A DNA stretch of 64,000 nucleotides, taken from positions 2,332-66,331 of the forward strand of contig JAZDOE010000008.1 of the NCBI GenBank assembly GCA_043798985.1, given 5' to 3'. The notes beneath the pieces are model-generated. The model had not been told where the DNA came from and made no database searches. It was given only the letters and a program-made list of their open reading frames with translations. This DNA is from Candidatus Falkowbacteria bacterium (GTDB taxonomy: Bacteria > Patescibacteriota > Patescibacteriia > UBA11705 > JACRDX01). Of this stretch, positions 12,693-57,512 are shown piece by piece (the stretch's first letter is position 1; the number at the start of each line of letters is the position of its first letter). The translations under genes were made by a program, and so were the position numbers.

Positions 12693-12724
12693 AATTCACC
12701 CCGCCAAAGGCGGGGCTACAATTT

Positions 12725-14110: not shown

Positions 14111-15847
14111 CTACATCATTTGTACTTCCTTTATATTTAATAATCGCAAACCTTTTGTCAATACGTCTTTAACGTTGTTGGATAAAAATAATCGCGCAGC
14201 CGCCAGCTCTGGGTTTTCGCCAATGACACGGCATTTTTGATAAAAATTGTTAAACAATTGTGACAAATCCAACAAATATTTGCACAAACCGCTTGGGTCT
14301 AACTCTATTTCGGCCTTTTTAACCGCGTCGTTAAACATTCCAATTTTCAAAGCCAATTCGCGCTCAATATTCTCAACCAGCAAATCCAATTTGCAATTCT
14401 TCTGCTTTAATTTAGCGGCAGATGCCTTTTCAAAAAGAGAGTTTATGCGCGCGATTGTATAAAGCACGTATGGGCCAGTATCGCCATCAAACGCAGTCGC
14501 CTTATCAATGTCAAAAACAATCACACTGTTATTTTCATATTTTAAAATCCAAAACTTTATTGCAGCCAACGCGAGTTTCGTTGAAACATCTTCAACTTGC
14601 CGCGTTGACCAATCTACATGCCGCGCGTTTGTTTCTGCTTTTGCTTTTTCCAAAACAGCGTTAAACAACGAATCAAATGAAACAACATTACCCTTTCGCG
14701 ACGCCATGGCGCCCTCTGGCAAAGTGACAAAATCATAGCTAACGTGCGCTTTTTCCTTTTTATCATAGCCTAGCAAGTCCAGCAACTTGAAAATTTGTTT
14801 TAAATACAATGACTGGCGGACATCAACTACGTAAATTGACTTGTCAATTTTATATTTTTCAAACTTTTTAATTCCCAATGGCAAATCTTTGGCGCCATAA
14901 AGAACATTACCGTCAGATTTTATCAAAACCAAAACATCCAAACCATATTCCTGCAAATCAGCTATTAACGCGCCTTCGCTCATTTTTACTTCTTTAATTT
15001 TTCCTTCCTTAACAATACGTGCTAACAATTTTCGCCCCTCTTTTTCCTCTGCGCTTTCCCAAAACCATTCGTCAAATTTATTGCCCAATATTCCATAAAT
15101 CTTATGAAAATCATCCATGCTCCATTTTTTTGTTTTTTTCCAAAGCGCTGTTGCTTTGCGCTCGCCAGCTTCCAAACGCTTTTGTACTTCAGCAATCTCA
15201 ACCATCAACTCTGGTTTTTCCGCCAACAAGTTAACAGCTTCAGAATAAACTTTTCCCAAATACTCCGCCTTATTTTTACCTTTTTCAATAATCAGCTTAG
15301 GATTATTTTTCTCCAAATACCATATACATTTTGCAACATGAACGCCTGTGTCGCCAATATAATTCGCAACAATCACCTTCTTTCCGGCTTCGCGCAAAAT
15401 ATTAACCACTGCCGCGCCAAGGCAGGCATTTCGCAAATGGCCGACATGAAATTCTTTGTGCGTGTTCGGCTGCGAATATTCAACCATAACCCTTTTACCA
15501 CCCGTAGAGACGAGATATATCTCGTCTCTACATTGCCTTGAACACAAAATTTGTTCAAGCAGCCATTTTCGCTTGAAAGTAAAATTCACATACGGCCCCA
15601 CAATCTTCAATTCCTCAATAAAATCTCCGCGCTTGTCATTTCGACCTCGCTTTAGCGAGGGAGAAATCCCTCGTAAAATTTCCGCCCCAACATCCATCGG
15701 AGACTTCTTCATCTTCTTCGCCAAATTAAAACACGGCAAAGCCAAATCACCCATTTTAATATCCGGCGGTGCGACAAAATCGCTTGCGCTGACATCAAAT
15801 CCCGCTTGTTGCAACAATTTTGCCAACTGTTCTTTAATTTTCTGCAT
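14111..15847 (-). CDS. argS: Arginyl-tRNA synthetase; the sequence carries two in-frame repeat insertions.
   Basis: HIGH-type motif EFHVGHLRNACLG and the DALR anticodon-binding C-terminus. Probable ATG start at 15847 (MQKIKEQ); the track ORF begins at a TTG at 15856. Confidence 0.9.
   Translation of the reverse strand: MQKIKEQLAKLLQQAGFDVSASDFVAPPDIKMGDLALPCFNLAKKMKKSPMDVGAEILRGISPSLKRGRNDKRGDFIEELKIVGPYVNFTFKRKWLLEQILCSRQCRDEIYLVSTGGKRVMVEYSQPNTHKEFHVGHLRNACLGAAVVNILREAGKKVIVANYIGDTGVHVAKCIWYLEKNNPKLIIEKGKNKAEYLGKVYSEAVNLLAEKPELMVEIAEVQKRLEAGERKATALWKKTKKWSMDDFHKIYGILGNKFDEWFWESAEEKEGRKLLARIVKEGKIKEVKMSEGALIADLQEYGLDVLVLIKSDGNVLYGAKDLPLGIKKFEKYKIDKSIYVVDVRQSLYLKQIFKLLDLLGYDKKEKAHVSYDFVTLPEGAMASRKGNVVSFDSLFNAVLEKAKAETNARHVDWSTRQVEDVSTKLALAAIKFWILKYENNSVIVFDIDKATAFDGDTGPYVLYTIARINSLFEKASAAKLKQKNCKLDLLVENIERELALKIGMFNDAVKKAEIELDPSGLCKYLLDLSQLFNNFYQKCRVIGENPELAAARLFLSNNVKDVLTKGLRLLNIKEVQMM
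15504..15531. repeat. Family B palindrome, copy B1 (GTAGAGACGAGATATATCTCGTCTCTAC), inside the argS CDS.
   Basis: Perfect 28-nt palindrome translated in frame as CRDEIYLVST. Related copies lie at 54489..54516 and 56058..56083. Confidence 0.65.
15645..15673. repeat. GC-rich double-hairpin segment (CCTCGCTTTAGCGAGG / CGAGGGAGAAATCCCTCG) inside the argS N-terminal region; probably another in-frame insertion.
   Basis: It encodes RGISPSLKRGRNDKRGD between the conserved ArgRS N-terminal blocks. Its GC content is far above the surrounding sequence. Confidence 0.35.
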
Positions 15848-15848
15848 A

Positions 15849-17171
15849 TTAAACAACTTTAACGAAAAACCGCTTGCCCTTTTGGATCACACTGCCCCTT
15901 TTAACAACAATTTCCAATGTTTCAATAACCTTGCCGTCAATTTTGACGCCTCCTTGTTCAATCGCGCGGCGCGCTTCTCCTTTTGATTTAACAAGCCCGG
16001 CCACCAGCAACGCGTCAGTAATATTCATACCTGCGACTTTCGCGTCAGGCATTTCATCTGGTGTTTCTTTTTTTGAAAAAGTTTTAATAAAATTTTCGCG
16101 CCCTGACACTGCTTCTTTTTCTCCATGATAAATTTTTACAATGGCTTCTGCCAATTCCAGTTTCAAATCACGCGGATTTTCCCCTCCTTTTAGTCTCTTT
16201 TCAACCGCGCCAACGCTTTCGGCCGGTTCTAACTTGCAAAGTTCAAACCCCGGAACAATCATTCCGTCAGTCCAGCTCATAACTTTTCCAAACATTTGTT
16301 CAGCCATATCATCTAACGTAATCATATTGCCCTCGCTCTTTCCCATTTTCTTTCCTGTTGTGTCAGTCAGCAATTTGTTCGCCAAAACGAATTTTTCTTT
16401 TCCTTTCATTGATTTCATCAAATCGCGGCCAACCAACATGTTGAACGTCTGATCATTCCCACCGATTTCACCATCAACATCCATCGCCACCGAATCATAC
16501 CCCTGCATCAACGGATATAAAAACTCATGCAACCCAATCGGGGATGGGCTAATTAAATCTTCAATCTTATCACAAGCCACGGCATGCAAACATTTTTTAC
16601 AAACACCACCGACTGGCGGAACAGTTGTTTGCCCCAACAAAATCAACTCCCCGCAATGTTCGCAAATCTTTTTCCAATGCATTCTTTTTCTGAACATATC
16701 ACGAGAAAGCATTTGTTGCACAGTAAAATGGCTCGCCAGATCAATAATTTCTTTAAACGTCAATTTATCCAACCAGTCGCCGTTGAATTTGATTTCAGCC
16801 GGATTTGCGCCGTCAAATTTAATCAAAGCGCTTGCTTGCTTTTTATAATTCTCACAATTTTTCAAAACCTGTTCGCGCGTCAATGGTTTACGCATTGCCA
16901 ATTTGTCAGTCGGGTCGCCAATCATTGCCGTAAAACTGCCAATCAACATTATTATTTTGTGACCCAACTCTTGAAACTGGCGCAACTTCATTAAACTAAT
17001 CGCATGACCAAGATGCAAACTCGGGCCAGTTGGATCAATGCCCAAATATATACGCAACTGTTTTCCTGATTTTAATTTTTCTTCTAAAAATTCTCGCGCC
17101 GGAAAAATATTTTCCACGCCACGAGTCAAAAGTTCCTCTATCTTTTTTGCATCTACGTTTATTTTGGGCAT
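15849..17171 (-). CDS. tyrS: Tyrosyl-tRNA synthetase carrying a zinc-ribbon insertion of about 45 aa.
   Basis: GIDPTGPSLHLGHAISL (HIGH motif), KMGKS motif and the C-terminal S4 domain are all present. The insertion HWKKICEHCGELILLGQTTVPPVGGVCKKCLHAVAC has a CxxC-x18-CxxC pattern. Confidence 0.9.
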   Translation of the reverse strand: MPKINVDAKKIEELLTRGVENIFPAREFLEEKLKSGKQLRIYLGIDPTGPSLHLGHAISLMKLRQFQELGHKIIMLIGSFTAMIGDPTDKLAMRKPLTREQVLKNCENYKKQASALIKFDGANPAEIKFNGDWLDKLTFKEIIDLASHFTVQQMLSRDMFRKRMHWKKICEHCGELILLGQTTVPPVGGVCKKCLHAVACDKIEDLISPSPIGLHEFLYPLMQGYDSVAMDVDGEIGGNDQTFNMLVGRDLMKSMKGKEKFVLANKLLTDTTGKKMGKSEGNMITLDDMAEQMFGKVMSWTDGMIVPGFELCKLEPAESVGAVEKRLKGGENPRDLKLELAEAIVKIYHGEKEAVSGRENFIKTFSKKETPDEMPDAKVAGMNITDALLVAGLVKSKGEARRAIEQGGVKIDGKVIETLEIVVKRGSVIQKGKRFFVKVV

Positions 17172-17177
17172 AAATTT

Positions 17178-20100
17178 TTACATTAAACCTTTTGTTTGTT
17201 CAAGAATCTTTTTTAATTTTTCTTTTGCCTCTGCCAATCTTGTTTTCTCCGCGGCGACAACTTTTTCCGGCGCGTTTTTTATAAATTCAACATTGCTTAA
17301 CTTTCTTTCCAGCCCGCCAATATAATTTTCCAAATTATCTTTTTCCTTTTCCAACCGTTGCTTTTCTTTTCCAGAATCAATCAATCCAGCAAGCGGCATA
17401 TAAATTTCAATTTTTCCAATAATTGCACAGGCCGCTTGCTCTGGCTTTCTTGAAACAAAATTCAAATTCTCAACTTTAGCTAACGCCTTTATTATGTTTG
17501 CCGCGTCTGCCAACGCCTTGCCACCAATAATTTCAATGTCGATTTTTTTTGCCAAATCAACTTTATGTTCAGCTCGCAAATTTCTTATTTTCGTCACAAC
17601 TTCAACAATCGCGGAAAATTCTTTATCAACTTTTTCGTTAATCAACTTCTTATCAACTTTTGGCCATTCCGCAACTATTAAATTCTCGCGAATGCCCCCG
17701 CTTGTCATCCTGAGGCTCTCGAAGGATGACCATATTGCCTCCGTCACAAACGGCGCGAATGGATGCCACAACTTCAACAAATCTTTCAATATACTCAACA
17801 AAATCGCGTCTTTGTTTTTTTCAACTTTGCTGATTTCCAAATACCAATCAGCAAAATCATTCCATGTAAATTCGCGCAACAATTCGCCTGCCGCAGAAAA
17901 ATTATATTCATCTAAAAACTTCGTGACATCTCGTTTTAAACAATTCAACCGCGACAAAATCCATCGATCTGCTAACGTCGCGCCTGTCATTTCGAACCCG
18001 CCCACGGCGGGTGAGAAATCCCTTGTAGTCGTCAGCACGAACCTAGAAATATTCCACAATTTATTAACCAAATTTCTGCATCCCTCAACTTTTTCTTCAA
18101 AAAATCTAATGTCATTGCCCGGCGTTGTGCCAATTAACAATGCCAACCGCGACGCATCTGCTCCATATTTTTCAATCATGTCCAACGGATCAATTCCATT
18201 GCCGCGCGACTTGCTCATCTTTTTGCCATTTTTATCAAGCACCATTCCGTGCAAATAAACTTTTTCAAAAGGAATTTCGCCAAGTGCAAAAAAACTCATC
18301 ATCACCATTCGCGACACCCACAAAGTAATAATTTCATAACCAGTTTCCAACATTTGCGTCGGATGAAACCTTGCAAGATCGCCGGTTTTATTCAGCGTTG
18401 AAAAAGTCCACATTCCGGACGAAAACCAAGTGTCCAAAGAATCTTCATCTTGCTTCAAATTGAACGAACCGCACGAGCAAACTGCCGGCGGTAATTTTAT
18501 ACGCACATCTTTCGCGTTGTCCGGATATGTTAATTTATAAATCTCCAAATCGCTCAAATTTGTATTAAATCCTTTTACCACACGGGCAACATCGCCATGC
18601 GCCACCGCCAAAATTTTCTTGCCTGGATATTTTTTCGCGACTTCATCAAAAAAGGAAAAAACTCGTGATTTTAAACTATCAAATGACTCAATGCCTCGCG
18701 GAGAGTCATGATGCCACGCTTCAAAATCTTTTTTGCGAAACGCGCCCAATTCTTTGTCAGATTTTCCCTCAAACTCACCCATACCAACCTCGCGCAACCG
18801 TTTATCAAAAATTATTTTCTTGATTCCCAATTTGCCTGCCACGATTTTGGCGGTTTCCTGCGCTCTCTTAAAATCCGATGAAAAAATAATGTCTATTTTT
18901 TCTGCAAGCAACTCTTCCGCGACGGAAACAGATTGCGCTTTTCCTTTTTCTGTCAAACCATTTTCTTGATTTTTTATGTCAGAATTTAATTTGTCTTCAA
19001 CGTTGCTGCGCGATTCGCCATGCCGCAAAACGATAATTTCCGTATTTAATTTTTCAGTCACTTTAACTTCATTGCATTTTTCGCAATACCAAACAGGAAT
19101 TCTATGACCAAACCAAATCTGTCGGCTGATGCACCAATCCTGCATATTTTTCATCCAATCCAAATATCTCTTTTCAAATCTCTCCGGAATAAACTCAATC
19201 GCATGTTTTTCAGCGGCTTCAATCGCTTTTTCTTTCAAAGATTTGTTGCCTAATTTTTTAATCTTTTTATCAACCGCGACAAACCATTGTTTGCTTGGCA
19301 ATGGCTCAATCGCTGTGCCACAACGATAACAAATGGATAAATTATTATCTATTTCTTCTTCTTTTTCCAACAAATTCTGCGCGCGCAACCTTTCAACAAC
19401 CATTTGGCGCGCGCCCAAAACATCTTTTCCAGAATATTCTCCAAAATTTTCTTTAATTTTTCCATTCTCATCAATTACTTTTACAACTTCCAAATTGTTC
19501 GCCCGCGCCATTTGCCAATCAACAATGGAATGCGCGGGCGTTACGCCGAGCGCTCCGGTGCCGAAATTCATATCAACCTGCCAATCACCAATGATTTTAA
19601 TTTTAAGCGGCACACCGACAAAATCAACGCTAAATTCTTTGCCAATATATTTTTTATAGCGCTCGTCTTTCGGATTTACCGCGACAGCAGTGTCGCCAAG
19701 TTTTGTTTCCGGCCGAGTCGTGGCAATTGTAATCGGAAAATTTTTATTGTATTTAAAAGTATAAAGTTTTGCTTTTTGCTCCTGATATTCCACTTCGTCA
19801 TCGGCCAAAGTTGACTGGCATCGCGGGCACCAATTTACCACTCGTTCGCCACGATAAATCACACCTGAATCATACATATCCGCGAACATTTTTGCCACAG
19901 CCTTTATCCGCGGCTCATCTAATGTAAAAGCCTGCCGCGACCAATCCAAAGACGCGCCCATTTTCTTTATTTGATGCAAAATGGTTGTTTGCGTTTCTCT
20001 CAAAAACTCCCAAACTTTTTCCAAAAATTTTTCGCGCCCCAAATCATGCCGCGTCTTTTTTTCTTCTTTCCATAATTGCTTTTCCACAACATTTTGCGTG

Positions 20101-20369
20101 GCAATTGCCGCGTGATCAGTTCCGGGTAACCACAGCGCCCTAAATCCATTCATCCGTTTGTATCGAATTATCAAATCTTCAATCGCCAAAGTCAACGCTT
20201 GGCCCATGTGTAATTTTGCGGTAATATTCGGCGGCGGCAAAATAATTGTGTATGGTTTTGCCTTTTTCGGCAAATTCAAATTGTCTGGATTAAAAAATCC
20301 ACTTTCTTCCCAATCCTTGTAAATTTTATCTTCAAAATCTTTGGGAATGTACGCCTTTGGAATCTCCAT
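17178..20369 (-). CDS. valS: Valyl-tRNA synthetase with an inserted histidine-phosphatase (PGAM-like) domain of about 200 aa.
   Basis: PNITAKLHMGQALT (HIGH), the editing domain and the KMSKS region are present. Between the two zinc-knuckle Cys pairs (WYCEKC ... CSCG) lies a full His-phosphatase fold with VLRHGESRSN and AVAHGDVARV. Confidence 0.9.
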   Translation of the reverse strand: MEIPKAYIPKDFEDKIYKDWEESGFFNPDNLNLPKKAKPYTIILPPPNITAKLHMGQALTLAIEDLIIRYKRMNGFRALWLPGTDHAAIATQNVVEKQLWKEEKKTRHDLGREKFLEKVWEFLRETQTTILHQIKKMGASLDWSRQAFTLDEPRIKAVAKMFADMYDSGVIYRGERVVNWCPRCQSTLADDEVEYQEQKAKLYTFKYNKNFPITIATTRPETKLGDTAVAVNPKDERYKKYIGKEFSVDFVGVPLKIKIIGDWQVDMNFGTGALGVTPAHSIVDWQMARANNLEVVKVIDENGKIKENFGEYSGKDVLGARQMVVERLRAQNLLEKEEEIDNNLSICYRCGTAIEPLPSKQWFVAVDKKIKKLGNKSLKEKAIEAAEKHAIEFIPERFEKRYLDWMKNMQDWCISRQIWFGHRIPVWYCEKCNEVKVTEKLNTEIIVLRHGESRSNVEDKLNSDIKNQENGLTEKGKAQSVSVAEELLAEKIDIIFSSDFKRAQETAKIVAGKLGIKKIIFDKRLREVGMGEFEGKSDKELGAFRKKDFEAWHHDSPRGIESFDSLKSRVFSFFDEVAKKYPGKKILAVAHGDVARVVKGFNTNLSDLEIYKLTYPDNAKDVRIKLPPAVCSCGSFNLKQDEDSLDTWFSSGMWTFSTLNKTGDLARFHPTQMLETGYEIITLWVSRMVMMSFFALGEIPFEKVYLHGMVLDKNGKKMSKSRGNGIDPLDMIEKYGADASRLALLIGTTPGNDIRFFEEKVEGCRNLVNKLWNISRFVLTTTRDFSPAVGGFEMTGATLADRWILSRLNCLKRDVTKFLDEYNFSAAGELLREFTWNDFADWYLEISKVEKNKDAILLSILKDLLKLWHPFAPFVTEAIWSSFESLRMTSGGIRENLIVAEWPKVDKKLINEKVDKEFSAIVEVVTKIRNLRAEHKVDLAKKIDIEIIGGKALADAANIIKALAKVENLNFVSRKPEQAACAIIGKIEIYMPLAGLIDSGKEKQRLEKEKDNLENYIGGLERKLSNVEFIKNAPEKVVAAEKTRLAEAKEKLKKILEQTKGLM
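17704..17730. repeat. Family A palindromic element, copy A1 (GTCATCCTGAGGCTCTCGAAGGATGAC), inside the valS CDS.
   Basis: Hairpin with stem GTCATCC/GGATGAC, translated in frame as ESLRMTSG. Related copies lie at 52292, 55329 and 56273. Confidence 0.65.
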
Positions 20370-46595: not shown

Positions 46596-46672
46596 CCCCG
46601 CCATCGGCGGGGCGAAGCGTGCGCGCTACCAACCCCAACGGGGCCCCTTCGGGGCCGCGCTAATCCCCGAAA
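46596..46672. repeat. Degenerate third copy of the tRNA-linked GC-rich element, upstream of tRNA-Pro(CGG).
   Basis: On the minus strand: CGGGGATTAGCGCGG (a degenerate tRNA-Pro 5' fragment) followed by CCCCGAAGGGGCCCCGTTGGGGTTGGTA. Compare GGTCGCATAGCTCAGC + CCCGAAGGGGCCCCCTTGGGGCTGGTTA at the tRNA-Val locus. Confidence 0.4.
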
Positions 46673-52588: not shown

Positions 52589-53665
52589 CTACTTGCCCGC
52601 CTCTACCGAGGCGGGCGAGAGCGCGACCAACCCACCCGCGAAACTGCCACGAGCACCATCAAGACTCTGACTGCCATAGAAGTAAGCGTCATCACCATCG
52701 GCAAAGCAAAAGAGCGACCAGCCGCGCCACGCAAGCGCTGCCATGTCATAGCACGGCGTCTTGTTGTCCCGCAGCAGTTCTGCCGCGTACATACTCATTG
52801 CTGCCAGCGTATCCAATCCGCCTGCAAGCATGAACATTTCCGGCAAGGTTTCCATCTGCTCTCTGTCTGCATTGATGGAATATCCCTGCAGCGCGGTCGG
52901 GAAGTAAATCCCCACCACCGGCTCCTTACTTGCCGCTTCCAACACTCTCTCATGTCTGCTTCCCGCCCAGATTGTCACTTCTCCGGCAAGCTGCCCCGTG
53001 ATATTGTTGTGGAAGGGACGGTTGGGAAACGCCTTCGTGTATGCTCTTGCCACTGTTGGCACAAGCACCTTGTCCAGCTTTGCCCCGTAGTTTGCCGCCG
53101 TCACGCCAAGCCCTGCCGGAATGCAGAACGGGTACCATGCGCCTTTCAGCACATTCTTAACCGTTTCATCTGCTTCAATCTTCTGCACTAAAGCGTTGAT
53201 GCGCAGTGCGAACTCTTCGGCAGACACAAACTCCAACTTCTCGTCGACAAATGCTTCTTTCGCAAGCACCAATCTTTCGGCAAAGGACAACCGCTCTATC
53301 CGCGTCGGATAGTAACCGTAATTCGCGTCGCATACCGAGCTTCTCATTCCGGTCGGTGGGATTCTGCGGCCATTCTTGTCATAGACCAGCGTTGGCGTCG
53401 GCTCTATCACCATCTCGTTTGGCCCCATGAAAATCGCGTGCATTTCACCCGACAGCAAACAATCAACCACCGATTCCCCAAGCTTGTTCTCCAACAGCTC
53501 AAGATGCCCGAGCGTTCTCTGAGGATACTTGGCAGGATCTCCGGACCGCTTCATCTGCGTGAGCGTTGCCAGCACCGCATCTGCGCCACCGTGCAAAGCC
53601 ACGTAATCCACGATATCCGCGACCGTCAACTTCTTCCACCCGTCACAACTCATAGCATCCTCCAT
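52589..53665 (-). CDS. Conserved hypothetical protein, GC-rich, paralog 1 of a duplicated gene.
   Basis: 358 aa. The C-terminal 260 aa are about 85-90% identical to 54516..55466 (for example LEAASKEPVVGIYFPTALQGYSINADREQM, AAELLRDNKTPCYDMAALAWRGWSL). No family recognised. Confidence 0.5.
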   Translation of the reverse strand: MEDAMSCDGWKKLTVADIVDYVALHGGADAVLATLTQMKRSGDPAKYPQRTLGHLELLENKLGESVVDCLLSGEMHAIFMGPNEMVIEPTPTLVYDKNGRRIPPTGMRSSVCDANYGYYPTRIERLSFAERLVLAKEAFVDEKLEFVSAEEFALRINALVQKIEADETVKNVLKGAWYPFCIPAGLGVTAANYGAKLDKVLVPTVARAYTKAFPNRPFHNNITGQLAGEVTIWAGSRHERVLEAASKEPVVGIYFPTALQGYSINADREQMETLPEMFMLAGGLDTLAAMSMYAAELLRDNKTPCYDMAALAWRGWSLFCFADGDDAYFYGSQSLDGARGSFAGGLVALSPASVEAGK

Positions 53666-54401: not shown

Positions 54402-54488
54402 ACATACAAATAATACATCACAACCAATATTTTTTCAATCTTCTGAAATTAAAATAGGGAATGTTGTTTCAACATTCCCAAATTCTCC

Positions 54489-54516
54489 GTAGAGCCGAGA
54501 TATATCTCGGCTCTAC
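54489..54516. repeat. Family B palindrome, copy B2 (GTAGAGCCGAGATATATCTCGGCTCTAC), abutting the stop codon of paralog 2.
   Basis: Perfect palindrome; differs from B1 by a compensatory A/T to C/G change. Confidence 0.6.
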
Positions 54517-55466
54517 TACGCGAGGGCGACCAAACCGCCGGCGATATAGTCATAAGCACCCGCAAGACGCCGACCGTCACGGAAGAAGGCAGAAACATCA
54601 TAAGCATAGCAATCGAGCGACCAGCCGCGCCAAGCGAGCGCTGCCATGTCATAGCACGGCGTCTTGTTGTCGCGCAGCAGTTCTGCCGCGTACATACTCA
54701 TTGCGCACATGGTATCCAACCCACCTGCAAGCATGAACATTTCCGGCAAGGTTGCCATCTGCTCTCTGTCTGCATTGATGGAATATCCCTGCAGCGCGGT
54801 CGGGAAGTAAATCCCCACCACCGGCTCTTTGCTTGCCGCTTCCAGCACCCTCTCATGCCTGCTTCCCTGCCAAATCGTCACTTCTCCGGAAAGCTGACCG
54901 TTGAGATTGTTGTGGAAGGGACGATTGGGAAACGCCTTCGTGTATGCTCTTGCCACTGCCGACAAAAGCACCTTGTCCATCTTATCCCCGTAGTTTGCCG
55001 CCGTCACTCCGAGCCCTCCGGGGATGACGAACGGGTACCATGCGCCTTTCAGCACGTTCTTAATCGTTTCGTCCGCCTCAATCTTCATTACCAGCGCATT
55101 GATGCGCTCAAAAAACTGCTCAACGGACACGAACGTCAGCGACTTGTCATTGAACACCTCCTGCGCCAATTTCAGCTTCGCGCCAAACGGCAACTGCTCA
55201 AGTCGCGTCGGGCAGTAACCATAGTTCGCGTCGCACACCGAACTTTTCATCCCCTGCGGCGGGATTCTGCGCCCGTTCTTGTCATAGACCAGCGTCGGCG
55301 TCGGCTCTATCACCACCTCATGCGTCTTGTCACCCTGAGGCTCTCGAAGGGCGACCACTCTGACCGTCAGCTCGCCGTTCGCAATTTTGCGCGCAATTTC
55401 CGTGCCACCGAGACGATTCAACAATGCTTCGTCCTCATTGCGCATCCAGTCACCATACTTTCCCAT
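54516..55466 (-). CDS. Conserved hypothetical protein, GC-rich, paralog 2; its N-terminus contains a family A palindrome insertion.
   Basis: 316 aa; VVALREPQGDKTHEV is encoded by 55329..55355. Confidence 0.5.
   Translation of the reverse strand: MGKYGDWMRNEDEALLNRLGGTEIARKIANGELTVRVVALREPQGDKTHEVVIEPTPTLVYDKNGRRIPPQGMKSSVCDANYGYCPTRLEQLPFGAKLKLAQEVFNDKSLTFVSVEQFFERINALVMKIEADETIKNVLKGAWYPFVIPGGLGVTAANYGDKMDKVLLSAVARAYTKAFPNRPFHNNLNGQLSGEVTIWQGSRHERVLEAASKEPVVGIYFPTALQGYSINADREQMATLPEMFMLAGGLDTMCAMSMYAAELLRDNKTPCYDMAALAWRGWSLDCYAYDVSAFFRDGRRLAGAYDYIAGGLVALA
55329..55355. repeat. Family A palindromic element, copy A3 (GTCACCCTGAGGCTCTCGAAGGGCGAC).
   Basis: In-frame within paralog 2. Confidence 0.55.
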
Positions 55467-55624: not shown

Positions 55625-56893
55625 TTACACAATTTTCCTGCGCAACAATGTCATTTCCGGAACATTTTTATTTATTTCCAAATAAATTTCCTGCTTTTGC
55701 CCACCATGTGCTTCTTTTATCCGTTTCATATCTTTATCAAAAATCTTTGTAATTTTTTGTTTAAAAACTTTACCCACTGGTGGTACGAACTCAATCTCAT
55801 CACCCACAAAAATCTGATTATGCACCAAAACTTTAATTATTCGCAGATTAGTAACATTCGAATGATTCGTAGCTTCGTAGCCACCAACAACTTCGCCGCA
55901 AAACTCCCATTCGCACGTTTCATGGCTCGCGTCTGTTTTTTGCCCTTGCCACGCCGAAGCTCCGCGAAGGCGGGCGCATTTTTCCTTTCCAAATAAAAAT
56001 CCTGTTGTAAATCCGCGGTTCTGATATTTTTTTAATTCTTTAATATAATATTTATCCAGAGACGAGACATGCCTCGTCTCTACAAGAGAATCAATTGCCG
56101 CGCGATAAACTTTTGTCACGCCGGCAACATAATAAATACTTTTTGACCGGCCCTCAATTTTAAACGACGAAATGCCGGCTTTTGCCAAATCTCTCAAATA
56201 TTCAACCAAACACAAATCTTTTGAATTCATAATATAACTCCCGCTATCATCCTCTTCAATCAACAACACTCTGTCATGCTGAGGCTCTCGAAGCATCTTA
56301 TAACTCCATCTGCATGGCTGCGTGCAATCACCGAGATTTGCGCTTCGTTTTGTAAAAAACTGCGACAACAAACAACGGCCAGAATATGACATGCACATTG
56401 CGCCATGGACAAAACATTCCAGCTCAACTTTTGGCGCGGCTTTGTGGATTTTTTTAATTTCTTCCAGCGTGGTCTCGCGCGCCAAAATGACGCGCGAGAC
56501 ACCTTGCCGCGCCCAAAATTTCGCAGACTCTGAATTTATACAATTTGCTTGCGTTGAAAGATGGATATTCGCTTTTGGCCAGATCTTTTTTATTAAAACC
56601 AACACACCCGGATCAGAAACAACTAAAGCATCGGGTTTTACTGTCCGCAACCATTTAATATGTTCTGCCAATTTTGCGAAATGTTTTTCACGCGGAAAAA
56701 TGTTCAAAGTTATGTAGACTTTTTTATTGCGCGAGCGCGCGAAGTCAATTCCTTGATGCAATGTTTTTAAATTAAAATCATTCACTCGCGCGCGCAAAGA
56801 AAAATCAGGGATGCCGCAGTAAACCACGTCAGCCCCAAATTCAATCGCGTATTTTAATTTTTTCAAACTCCCTGCTGGTGAAATCAGCTCCAT
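55625..56893 (-). CDS. Peptidase U32 family protein (PrtC / RlhA-like). It carries at least four in-frame repeat insertions.
   Basis: MELISPAGSLKKLKYAIEFGADVVYCGIPDFSLRARVNDFNLKTLHQGIDFARSRNKKVYITLN is canonical U32. Insertions: C2 at 55840..55883 (TNHSNVTNLRIIK), D2 at 55949..55976 (ARLRGASAWQG), B3 at 56058..56083 (ETRHVSSL) and A4 at 56273..56297 (MLREPQHD). Confidence 0.7.
   Translation of the reverse strand: MELISPAGSLKKLKYAIEFGADVVYCGIPDFSLRARVNDFNLKTLHQGIDFARSRNKKVYITLNIFPREKHFAKLAEHIKWLRTVKPDALVVSDPGVLVLIKKIWPKANIHLSTQANCINSESAKFWARQGVSRVILARETTLEEIKKIHKAAPKVELECFVHGAMCMSYSGRCLLSQFFTKRSANLGDCTQPCRWSYKMLREPQHDRVLLIEEDDSGSYIMNSKDLCLVEYLRDLAKAGISSFKIEGRSKSIYYVAGVTKVYRAAIDSLVETRHVSSLDKYYIKELKKYQNRGFTTGFLFGKEKCARLRGASAWQGQKTDASHETCEWEFCGEVVGGYEATNHSNVTNLRIIKVLVHNQIFVGDEIEFVPPVGKVFKQKITKIFDKDMKRIKEAHGGQKQEIYLEINKNVPEMTLLRRKIV
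55840..55883. repeat. Copy C2 of the 44-nt repeat, in frame inside the U32 CDS.
   Basis: TTCGCAGATTAGTAACATTCGAATGATTCGTAGCTTCGTAGCCA; compare C1 at 12531..12574. Confidence 0.6.
55949..55976. repeat. Family D GC hairpin, copy D2 (CCACGCCGAAGCTCCGCGAAGGCGGGCG).
   Basis: Shares GCCGAAGC...CGAAGGC with 58059..58086 in ileS. Confidence 0.45.
56058..56083. repeat. Family B palindrome, copy B3 (AGAGACGAGACATGCCTCGTCTCTAC variant).
   Basis: Same arms as B1 with a different central loop (ACATGC versus ATATAT). Confidence 0.5.
56273..56297. repeat. Family A palindromic element, copy A4 (GTCATGCTGAGGCTCTCGAAGCATC).
   Basis: The central CTGAGGCTCTCGAAG is conserved; the stem is changed compensatorily (ATGC/GCAT). 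Confidence 0.5.
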
Positions 56894-56897
56894 ATTT

Positions 56898-57512
56898 TTA
56901 CGCGCTCCACCACGCCGCAATGCCAGCGAAAAATTCCCGTATTTTAAATTTCCACATTCCTGAATAATCGCTCAAATCAGACGCCACGCCAACCGCGTCA
57001 ACGCCCAGTTTATTGCAAACATACAACGCTCGTCCAAGATGCGCGCTTTGTGTCACCAAAATCGCGTCATTGATTTTAAAAACATTTTTCAAACGGTTGC
57101 ACGTGTCAAAAGTTGAAAGTCCAAGCGGATCCAAAATTAAATTATCGCTTTTCAACCCATGCGTGACAGCGAAATTCACCATTGCTTTTATCTCGTCGTG
57201 CGTCAAATCTGCGCTATCTCCGCTCATTAAAATTTTTTTGACCTTGCCTTCTTTATAAAGTTCCATTGCCATTAAAATTCTGTCTCTCAAAAAATCCCCG
57301 GGCCAATCTTTAAACTTTAAGCCGGCGCCGAACACAACTGCCACTTGCTTTTTCGGCGCCGAATCAAGCGTATAAATTTTATCAGCAATCTTGCGGTTTA
57401 TTAAAAAAAGAATTCCTGCAACAATCAACGCCAATAAAAAAATCAAAAAAATAAATCGTTTTGCCCATTTTTTCCACCTTTGCGGCCTGATTGTCTGTAT
57501 TATGGGATCCAC
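56898..57512 (-). CDS. SanA/YdcF (DUF218) family membrane protein.
   Basis: N-terminal TM helix, then KQVAVVFGAGL...ILMSGDSADLTHDEIKAMVNFAV... typical of DUF218. Confidence 0.65.
   Translation of the reverse strand: MDPIIQTIRPQRWKKWAKRFIFLIFLLALIVAGILFLINRKIADKIYTLDSAPKKQVAVVFGAGLKFKDWPGDFLRDRILMAMELYKEGKVKKILMSGDSADLTHDEIKAMVNFAVTHGLKSDNLILDPLGLSTFDTCNRLKNVFKINDAILVTQSAHLGRALYVCNKLGVDAVGVASDLSDYSGMWKFKIREFFAGIAAWWSA

Follow-up and report, generated by a model that had tools for sequence, protein, structure and literature searches.

What is nearly the same 28-nt palindrome doing at three places in a 64-kb stretch of the genome of a Candidatus Falkowbacteria bacterium: inside the gene for arginyl-tRNA synthetase (ArgRS), at the stop codon of a conserved open reading frame (ORF) and inside the gene for a U32 family peptidase? 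The stretch comprises 64,000 nucleotides of contig JAZDOE010000008.1 (assembly GCA_043798985.1, positions 2,332 to 66,331) and is referred to below as the window; its three palindromes, together called Family B, are B1, B2 and B3. The answer that we consider likely is that they are double-foot GTAG-tagged repetitive extragenic palindromes (REPs), which are 28-nt non-autonomous hairpins whose cognate enzyme elsewhere is a REP-associated tyrosine transposase (RAYT, or TnpA_REP) of subclass 2.4, an HUH/Y1 enzyme. The family itself has already been described; new are its host in the candidate phyla radiation (CPR), a group not treated in the surveys consulted, the individual places of insertion and the fact that different phyla have identical 28-mers in common.

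Sequence and folding of the three palindromes

B1 (15504..15531) is a perfect 28-nt palindrome, GTAGAGACGAGATATATCTCGTCTCTAC, with the intact double-foot GTAG REP form. B2 (54489..54516) is a perfect 28-nt palindrome as well, GTAGAGCCGAGATATATCTCGGCTCTAC, and its sole difference from B1 is a compensatory pair, A7:T22 being replaced by C7:G22. B3 (56056..56083) lies on the minus strand, where it reads GTAGAGACGAGGCATGTCTCGTCTCTGG from 56083 down to 56056; the 9-nt arms AGAGACGAG/CTCGTCTCT are kept around an asymmetric centre, ACATGC, in which one base has changed. A 5' GT[AG]G foot is present as GTAG on both strands of B1 and B2 and on the minus strand of B3. The second foot, 3' C[TC]AC, is found in B1 and B2, which terminate in CTAC, while B3 has lost it (CTGG instead of CTAC) and is a decayed copy. 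An earlier reading of this DNA, made from the sequence only, had located all three copies. It had described B1 as a perfect palindrome read as CRDEIYLVST in ArgRS, B2 as one compensatory base pair away from B1 and touching a stop codon, and B3 as keeping its arms around a different centre, and all of this was borne out.

When folded as single-stranded DNA (ssDNA), B1, B2 and B3 reach -12.3, -13.6 and -9.3 kcal/mol; the corresponding z-scores against shuffled controls are -6.5, -5.3 and -5.4. The stem measures 10 bp in B3 and 12 bp in the other two, and the arm GTAGAGACGAG has 55% G+C, which places these elements among long perfect stems of at least 50% G+C. The core pattern AGAGNCGAG-N6-CTCGNCTCT, with at most two mismatches, has three matches in the window, namely B1, B2 and B3, against 0.00 expected from 100 dinucleotide-preserving shuffles. 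This agrees with the claim of the sequence-only reading that the resemblance is not due to chance. Two reading frames of the 28-mer are open and one contains TAG, and the three copies represent three different frame outcomes: CRDEIYLVST (B1, frame 3), VETRHVSSL (B3, frame 1) and a TAG stop (B2). A search of the window against Rfam returned tRNAs only. An intrinsic terminator combines a GC hairpin with a T-run, and no T-run follows B1, B2 or B3; the possibility that they are terminators was rejected for this reason. A DNA uptake sequence was also considered and rejected.

Occurrence in other genomes and covariation of the stem

The core pattern was searched for in reference genomes, one per species, and was found at no fewer than 118 loci; the counts that follow are among the matches listed. 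About 40% of these carry GT...AC directly outside the core, extending it to GTAG...CTAC, against 1 in 256 by chance. The extended form was found in Ignavibacteriota, Bacteroidota, Chlorobi, Acidobacteriota, Gammaproteobacteria and Cyanobacteria, and within the CPR in Komeilibacteria, Parcubacteria and Falkowbacteria. The commonest form among the matches listed, GTAGAGACGAGGCATGCCTCGTCTCTAC, occurs in Ignavibacteriota, Bacteroidota, Chlorobi, Acidobacteriota, Gammaproteobacteria, Komeilibacteria and Parcubacteria. A Melioribacteraceae genome (L009) and a further Falkowbacteria genome (L067) contain the exact B1 28-mer as well.

Covariation was assessed in 53 non-redundant GTAG...CTAC copies from the fetched loci. 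The stem pair 7:22, which the pattern leaves unconstrained, is Watson-Crick in 53 of 53 copies (A:T in 36, C:G in 10 and G:C in 7), and 36 of the 53 copies have a 6-nt centre that is itself palindromic. The sequence-only reading had taken compensatory substitutions as structural evidence; one pair among three copies is no proof by itself, but the 53 Watson-Crick copies do support the argument. The flanks of the 53 copies show a pyrimidine at position -1 (T 49%, C 28%; 77% together) as their only signal. In 8 of them the flanks lengthen the palindrome by at least 4 bp with unrelated sequences (such as AAAAAA...TTTTTT or CATCCA...TGGATG), where chance would give far fewer; such copies may be nested in other hairpins or may serve as bidirectional terminators.

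The form GTAGAGACGAGGCATGCCTCGTCTCTAC was also observed in frame in protein-coding genes, among which those for TsaD (Komeilibacteria), PheT (B3_4 domain), PrmC, a SpoIIE phosphatase, a ResIII helicase and the Por_Secre_tail domain of the type IX secretion system (T9SS) in two Ignavibacteria proteins (loci L029, L115, L028, L027/L050, L094 and L081 jointly). The matches in Stenotrophomonas, GTAGAGCCGAGC...GCTCGGCTCTAC, combine a GTAG foot with a perfect hairpin, and the 11-nt arm of B2, GTAGAGCCGAG, is identical to their arms. Judged by the form of their sequence, these matches would be equivalent to SMAG-like REPs. In viral contigs the same pattern gave 35 matches, none with GTAG/CTAC feet; these are ordinary terminator-like hairpins, and viruses were rejected as carriers on the basis of this count (0 of 35).

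Insertion sites and ortholog comparison

The translated B1 covers residues 109-118 of ArgRS. Together with one flanking base per side it forms a 30-nt, 10-codon in-frame block, located at the junction of the Pfam domain Arg_tRNA_synt_N (residues 6-94) and the catalytic domain (116-442). In an alignment of 16 ArgRS sequences the peptide CRDEIYLVST is found in the window protein and in P0003 (67% protein identity, locus L001) only. In the closer relative P0002 (78% protein identity; loci L002 and L003) the B1 site is taken up by a GC-rich hairpin unrelated to B1, and 12 other orthologs are without the element. The argS genes of the window and L002 are 80% identical at the DNA level while both share 71% identity with that of L001, which makes L001 the outgroup. 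The 30-nt block (TGTAGAG...CTCTACG) is identical in 30 of 30 positions between the window and L001, both of its flanks differ, and it is the longest identical run across the whole argS pair. With L001 as outgroup, the simplest history suggested by these comparisons would be an old insertion of B1, left unchanged in two lineages and replaced in the third. Alternatively, independent insertions may have occurred at the same codon. In the argS genes of L002 (4749-6527) and L003 (6934-8712) the hairpin at the exact B1 site is CGCCCCGTCGTTGGCGGGGC, within a 21-residue insert; in their N-terminal domain they also have a longer insert, at the place of SPSLKRGRNDKRGD in the window. The ArgRS linker appears as a recurrent landing place of differing hairpin elements.

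B3 is situated in a hypervariable stretch of the U32 peptidase alignment, in which the inserts of orthologs range from 0 to ~45 residues. The sequence-only reading had suggested that the ArgRS and U32 sites are insertions; the presence and absence seen among the orthologs of both proteins agree with this. Elsewhere in the U32 gene (~55941-55970) an exact 10-residue insert, ARLRGASAWQ, was observed relative to most orthologs. At that site ortholog P0123 has VETIHELSLQ, which is another double-foot REP reading, and the site has the look of another hot spot of insertion within this gene.

The foot of B2 supplies the G (position 54516) of the TAG stop codon of its host ORF, and a second in-frame TAG lies inside the same foot. 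B2 lies between the stop codon and an intrinsic terminator 10 nt downstream; given this separate terminator, B2 itself is not one. Any copy may have acquired a role for the host, such as protection of the mRNA 3' end at B2. B2 is the only copy in the window at the 3' end of an ORF, B1 and B3 being intragenic, and in the strict sense the three are thus not all extragenic. Intragenic REPs are documented (PMC3733652), so that this makes Family B a poorer fit to the name REP but not to the family.

Related Falkowbacteria loci and a second hairpin family

A generic double-foot scan of related Falkowbacteria loci revealed 28-nt siblings at unrelated places. Locus L001 has GTAGAGACAATTCATGAATTGTCTCTAC directly after the ferredoxin stop codon, and L067 has GTAGAGACGGGATATATCCCGTCTCTAC upstream of mutS as well as the exact B1 28-mer between mutS and mutL.

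A second type of hairpin, CCCGCC-N3..8-GGCGGG, occurs four times in the window (12700-12714, 17997-18011, 46597-46611 and 52596-52615) against 0.01 expected. One copy is in frame in valyl-tRNA synthetase (ValRS; SPAVGGFE), one constitutes the last codons of the paralog of the B2 host ORF, paralog 1 (SPASVEAGK), and one has a GTAG foot and lies in the ferredoxin-tRNA spacer. From its sequence, this footed hairpin (Table 1) is a candidate member of the canonical long REPs with three G-C pairs at the stem bottom (PMC6006769). The orthologous spacer holds GTGG-CCCCGCC-ATG-GGCGGGG in L002 and the double-foot 28-mer in L001. The CCCGCC...GGCGGG family probably represents the canonical REPs found in company with double-foot ones.

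Link with RAYT transposases

All fetched DNA was searched for RAYTs with Escherichia coli TnpA_REP, a sequence identical to PDB 4ER8, and two matches were obtained. Locus L126, a 1.7-kb metagenome contig retrieved with the ATATAT-centred pattern, carries a RAYT-like ORF of 206 aa with the motifs PNHVHG and WQPRFHDHIIRN. This ORF matches NCBIfam NF047646 (REP_Tyr_transpos, REP-associated tyrosine transposase) with E 4.9e-15, its score lying under the curated cut-off, and it matches E. coli TnpA_REP (4ER8) with E 3.6e-7. The gene is flanked by GTAGAGACG...CGTCTCTAC palindromes, GTAGAGACGAGACATGTCTCGTCTCTAC before it and GTAGAGACGTGATATATCACGTCTCTAC after it, and just behind its HUH motif it contains, in frame, the exact B1 28-mer. 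At the same place in the protein, the homologous RAYT gene of L073 (Melioribacteraceae) carries GTAGAGACGAGGCATGCCTCGTCTCTAC and that of L114 carries GTAGAGACGCACTGCAGTGCGTCTCTAC. An HUH motif can be recognised in 116 of the best 120 database homologs of the L126 protein, and at least 75 of these 116 encode VET..SL or RD..VST at that place. Such a peptide after the HUH motif is a published hallmark of subclass 2.4 with double-foot REPs (PMC6006769). An all-against-all clustering of the ORFs of at least 90 aa from the 118 genome loci returned only generic families as recurrent and no link with RAYT.

The sequence-only reading had compared the palindromes with a cruciform or with a restriction- or transposase-like recognition site. 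The transposase-like part of this suggestion has gained support from the B1 sequence in and beside the L126 RAYT gene, and the other two parts have found none. Its broader proposal of a mobile, structure-constrained mini-element has stood up, on the match with double-foot REPs, the unrelated loci in related Falkowbacteria, the presence and absence among orthologs, the covariation in 53 of 53 copies and the RAYT of L126. The particular copies in the window presumably have a RAYT origin and presumably have been mobile within this genome.

Comparison with known systems

TnpA_REP subclass 2.4 (Bertels group 4) is characterized by the motifs NH[IFV]H, WQ and YIxNNP and is hosted by Cyanobacteria, Bacteroidetes and a scattering of phyla (Quentin et al. 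2018, BMC Genomics 19:475, PMC6006769). Two kinds of REP go with it: canonical long hairpins, in which three G-C pairs form the bottom of the stem, and double-foot elements with 5' GT[AG]G and 3' C[TC]AC (PMC6006769). Family B shares with the latter the GT[AG]G foot, the C[TC]AC 3' end, the long perfect stem and the canonical GC-bottom REPs alongside, and the exact B1 sequence lies inside the RAYT gene of L126. It differs in its host range, since the survey concerned complete genomes, mainly of Cyanobacteria and Bacteroidetes, and makes no mention of CPR or Patescibacteria (PMC6006769). Moreover, the window is without a RAYT and two of its three copies are inside housekeeping genes. REPINs likewise derive from REPs and are non-autonomous; a RAYT present in single copy is believed to replicate them, and their inheritance is believed to have been vertical for long periods (Bertels and Rainey 2011, PMC3116915). 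A REPIN however consists of two inverted REPs and a spacer, whereas Family B consists of single 28-mers. As Quentin et al. suggest, the double-foot REP resembles a REPIN-like dimer with its centre deleted (PMC6006769).

The GTAG-tagged REP superfamily, which includes the SMAG elements of Stenotrophomonas maltophilia (GTAG families 6-9), was described by Di Nocera, De Gregorio and Rocco in 2013 (PMC3733652). The termini of these REPs often provide the TAG stop codon of the upstream ORF, and REPs have been found in frame inside genes, tRNA synthetase genes among them (PMC3733652). Family B has the same GTAG tag, short GC-rich perfect hairpin, compensatory sub-families, TAG stops and intragenic in-frame copies. 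In the superfamily, however, GTAG is found at one end and is unpaired, whereas in Family B it pairs with CTAC, and the 28-mers are in most cases palindromic over their full length. The density differs as well, with ~1 copy per 20 kb here and hundreds to thousands of copies per genome there.

The Rickettsia palindromic elements (RPE), which Ogata and coworkers are said to have reported in 2000, reportedly are Rickettsia-specific, with RPE-1 measuring ~100-150 bp. Both RPE and Family B are selfish palindromic DNA that sits in frame in essential genes, in a small genome dependent on a host, where surface loops tolerate it. With its 28 nt, GTAG feet, distribution over many phyla and Candidatus Falkowbacteria host, Family B has only the in-frame lifestyle in common with RPE.

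Proposed mechanism

In other RAYT/REP pairs the enzyme binds the folded single strand (PMC8266576). Cleavage requires the GTAG motif and an intact stem, and the cut is made at a nearby CT or CA dinucleotide (PMC8266576). By analogy, Family B elements would be substrates of a subclass 2.4 RAYT acting on ssDNA. When single-stranded, for instance at the replication fork, an element would fold into the 12-bp stem, as suggested by other RAYT/REP pairs; RAYT would recognise the hairpin and the GTAG foot and would cut and rejoin alongside, by which the element is copied or moved. For B1 and B2, as perfect palindromes, the substrate would be identical on either strand. Copies would persist only at harmless sites, B1 in the interdomain linker of ArgRS, B3 in a loop of the U32 peptidase and B2 at the end of an ORF, as its stop.

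Alternative explanations

Several observations weigh against a RAYT-mobilised REP family in this genome. Neither the 64-kb window nor ~42 kb of related CPR loci yielded a RAYT-like ORF, and transposition of REPs by RAYT in vivo is undemonstrated in any system (PMC8266576). The target-site duplication (of TA) that the sequence-only reading had envisaged did not materialize, neither at the B1 flanks in the window and L001 nor in the flanks of the 53 copies. No clean empty site was recovered, and the window lacks counterparts of the MutS and MutL of L067. With six loci in the metagenome collection, the ATATAT-centred subfamily is rare; in view of this and of the low copy density in the window, activity in this lineage may be ancient. 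Moreover, selection at the level of the element does not explain why B1 is identical at an orthologous site of 71%-identical genes. This identity would need gene conversion from other copies, re-insertion or constraint at the level of the host.

The last of these leads to the view that the copies are structural elements selected by the host, such as an mRNA 3'-end stabiliser, a translation or processing signal or a DNA structural site. This view is compatible with a REP origin and may hold for B2. The position of B2 between stop codon and terminator is the classic REP position tied to mRNA stabilisation (PMC3733652), and the 30/30 identity of the B1 block amid diverged flanks suggests constraint on that copy. 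Nevertheless we consider host selection unlikely: B1 and B3 are in the middle of ORFs, in variable loops, B3 is decaying, the closer relative has an unrelated hairpin in the place of B1 and most orthologs lack B1. Furthermore, the sequence recurs in unrelated genes and phyla, which speaks against a role tied to one gene. If Falkowbacteria are truly without a RAYT, the elements could have been spread or homogenised in trans across phyla, for example by the RAYT of a host or neighbour cell acting on episymbiotic CPR DNA or on transforming DNA. They could also have been co-opted by the CPR host, with the hairpin itself under host-level selection inside essential genes. Both ideas build on the identical 28-mers in Patescibacteria, Ignavibacteriota and Bacteroidota and on the perfect conservation of B1 at an orthologous site, and taken jointly they appear quite unlikely.

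It is very improbable that the palindromes are duplex-DNA sites for a dimeric protein, that is, a restriction-modification enzyme or a repressor. The perfect dyad symmetry, which extends to the 6-nt centre in 36 of the 53 copies, would suit such a site, as would the inverted GAGACG/CGTCTC motifs contained in B1 (GAGACG...CGTCTC) and B3. The compensatory pair of B2 however turns this motif into GAGCCG/CGGCTC, and G:C variants exist too, which fits a hairpin and not a base-specific site; a BsmBI-like restriction site (GAGACG) was rejected because of this change. In addition, the copies are in coding loops and at 3' ends instead of promoters, and the sequence spans phyla and is tied to RAYT genes. 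[quoted passage not shown] Family B resembles them in being a dispersed inverted repeat, yet 28 nt is far below MITE size (50-500 bp), the duplications are absent from the flanks mentioned above, and the only recurrent enzyme neighbour is the Y1/HUH RAYT, no DDE transposase being associated; this explanation is highly improbable as well. Chance, or a conserved functional peptide motif, has nothing in its favour beyond the translation of two copies. Its probability is negligible, as the shuffles give no expected match, the two translated copies use different frames, the third is untranslated and most orthologs lack the peptides.

Host genes and neighbouring features

The host genes of the three copies and two further hairpins are listed in Table 1. 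The host ORF of B2 obtained no assignment in Pfam, NCBIfam, PHROGs, PADLOC and PDB sequence searches. This ORF and its paralog (paralogs 2 and 1), neither of which matches a Pfam, NCBIfam or PDB family, have ~50% G+C in a genome of 40% G+C; their family comprises 471 clusters when grouped at 50% identity. Fusions to TIR or bSEFIR domains (PADLOC bSEFIR, E 1e-57) occur in some of its longer or distant members and hint that the paralogs may represent a defence-related domain. The duplication takes in the terminator hairpin, the stem of which differs by compensatory changes.

Table 1 Host genes of Family B copies and additional hairpins in the window
Feature	Position	Strand	Remarks
Candidate canonical REP, GTAG-CCCCGCC-TTT-GGCGGGG	12699..12719	-	Single foot; ferredoxin-tRNA spacer
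Arginyl-tRNA synthetase, host gene of B1	14111..15856	-	Pfam tRNA-synt_1d, DALR_1, Arg_tRNA_synt_N; protein 100% identical to an NCBI entry from a Candidatus Falkowbacteria MAG
Intrinsic terminator hairpin with T-run	54457..54479	-	Downstream of B2
Conserved protein, host ORF of B2 (paralog 2)	54516..55466	-	79% identical to ORF 52589-53665
U32 family peptidase, host gene of B3	55625..56920	-	Pfam Peptidase_U32, Peptidase_U32_C; ortholog alignment

Two other tRNA synthetases in the window have apparent insertions. ValRS (17178-20369) has an apparent inserted histidine-phosphatase domain (His_Phos_1, PGAM-like), for which the syntenic ortholog of L002/L003 gives a Pfam match and the window protein has an RHGES motif. 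Tyrosyl-tRNA synthetase (TyrRS, 15849-17171) has a cysteine-rich insert, CEHCGE...CKKCLHAVAC, that resembles a zinc-ribbon insertion.

Biological significance

To our knowledge, few mobile elements are known in Candidatus Falkowbacteria. The present data extend GTAG double-foot REPs to this lineage with very small genomes. If RAYT proves absent from these genomes, the question of how the copies stay identical becomes interesting; otherwise the finding is an ordinary one. Essential enzymes tolerate double-foot REPs, as is seen with ArgRS here and with TsaD and PheT elsewhere. Double-foot REPs also explain the recurrent ten-residue peptides (such as VETRxxSSL or CRDExxLVST) in variable loops or at C-termini of CPR and metagenome proteins, which are assigned to selfish DNA, should not be taken for functional motifs and are a source of annotation and alignment artefacts.

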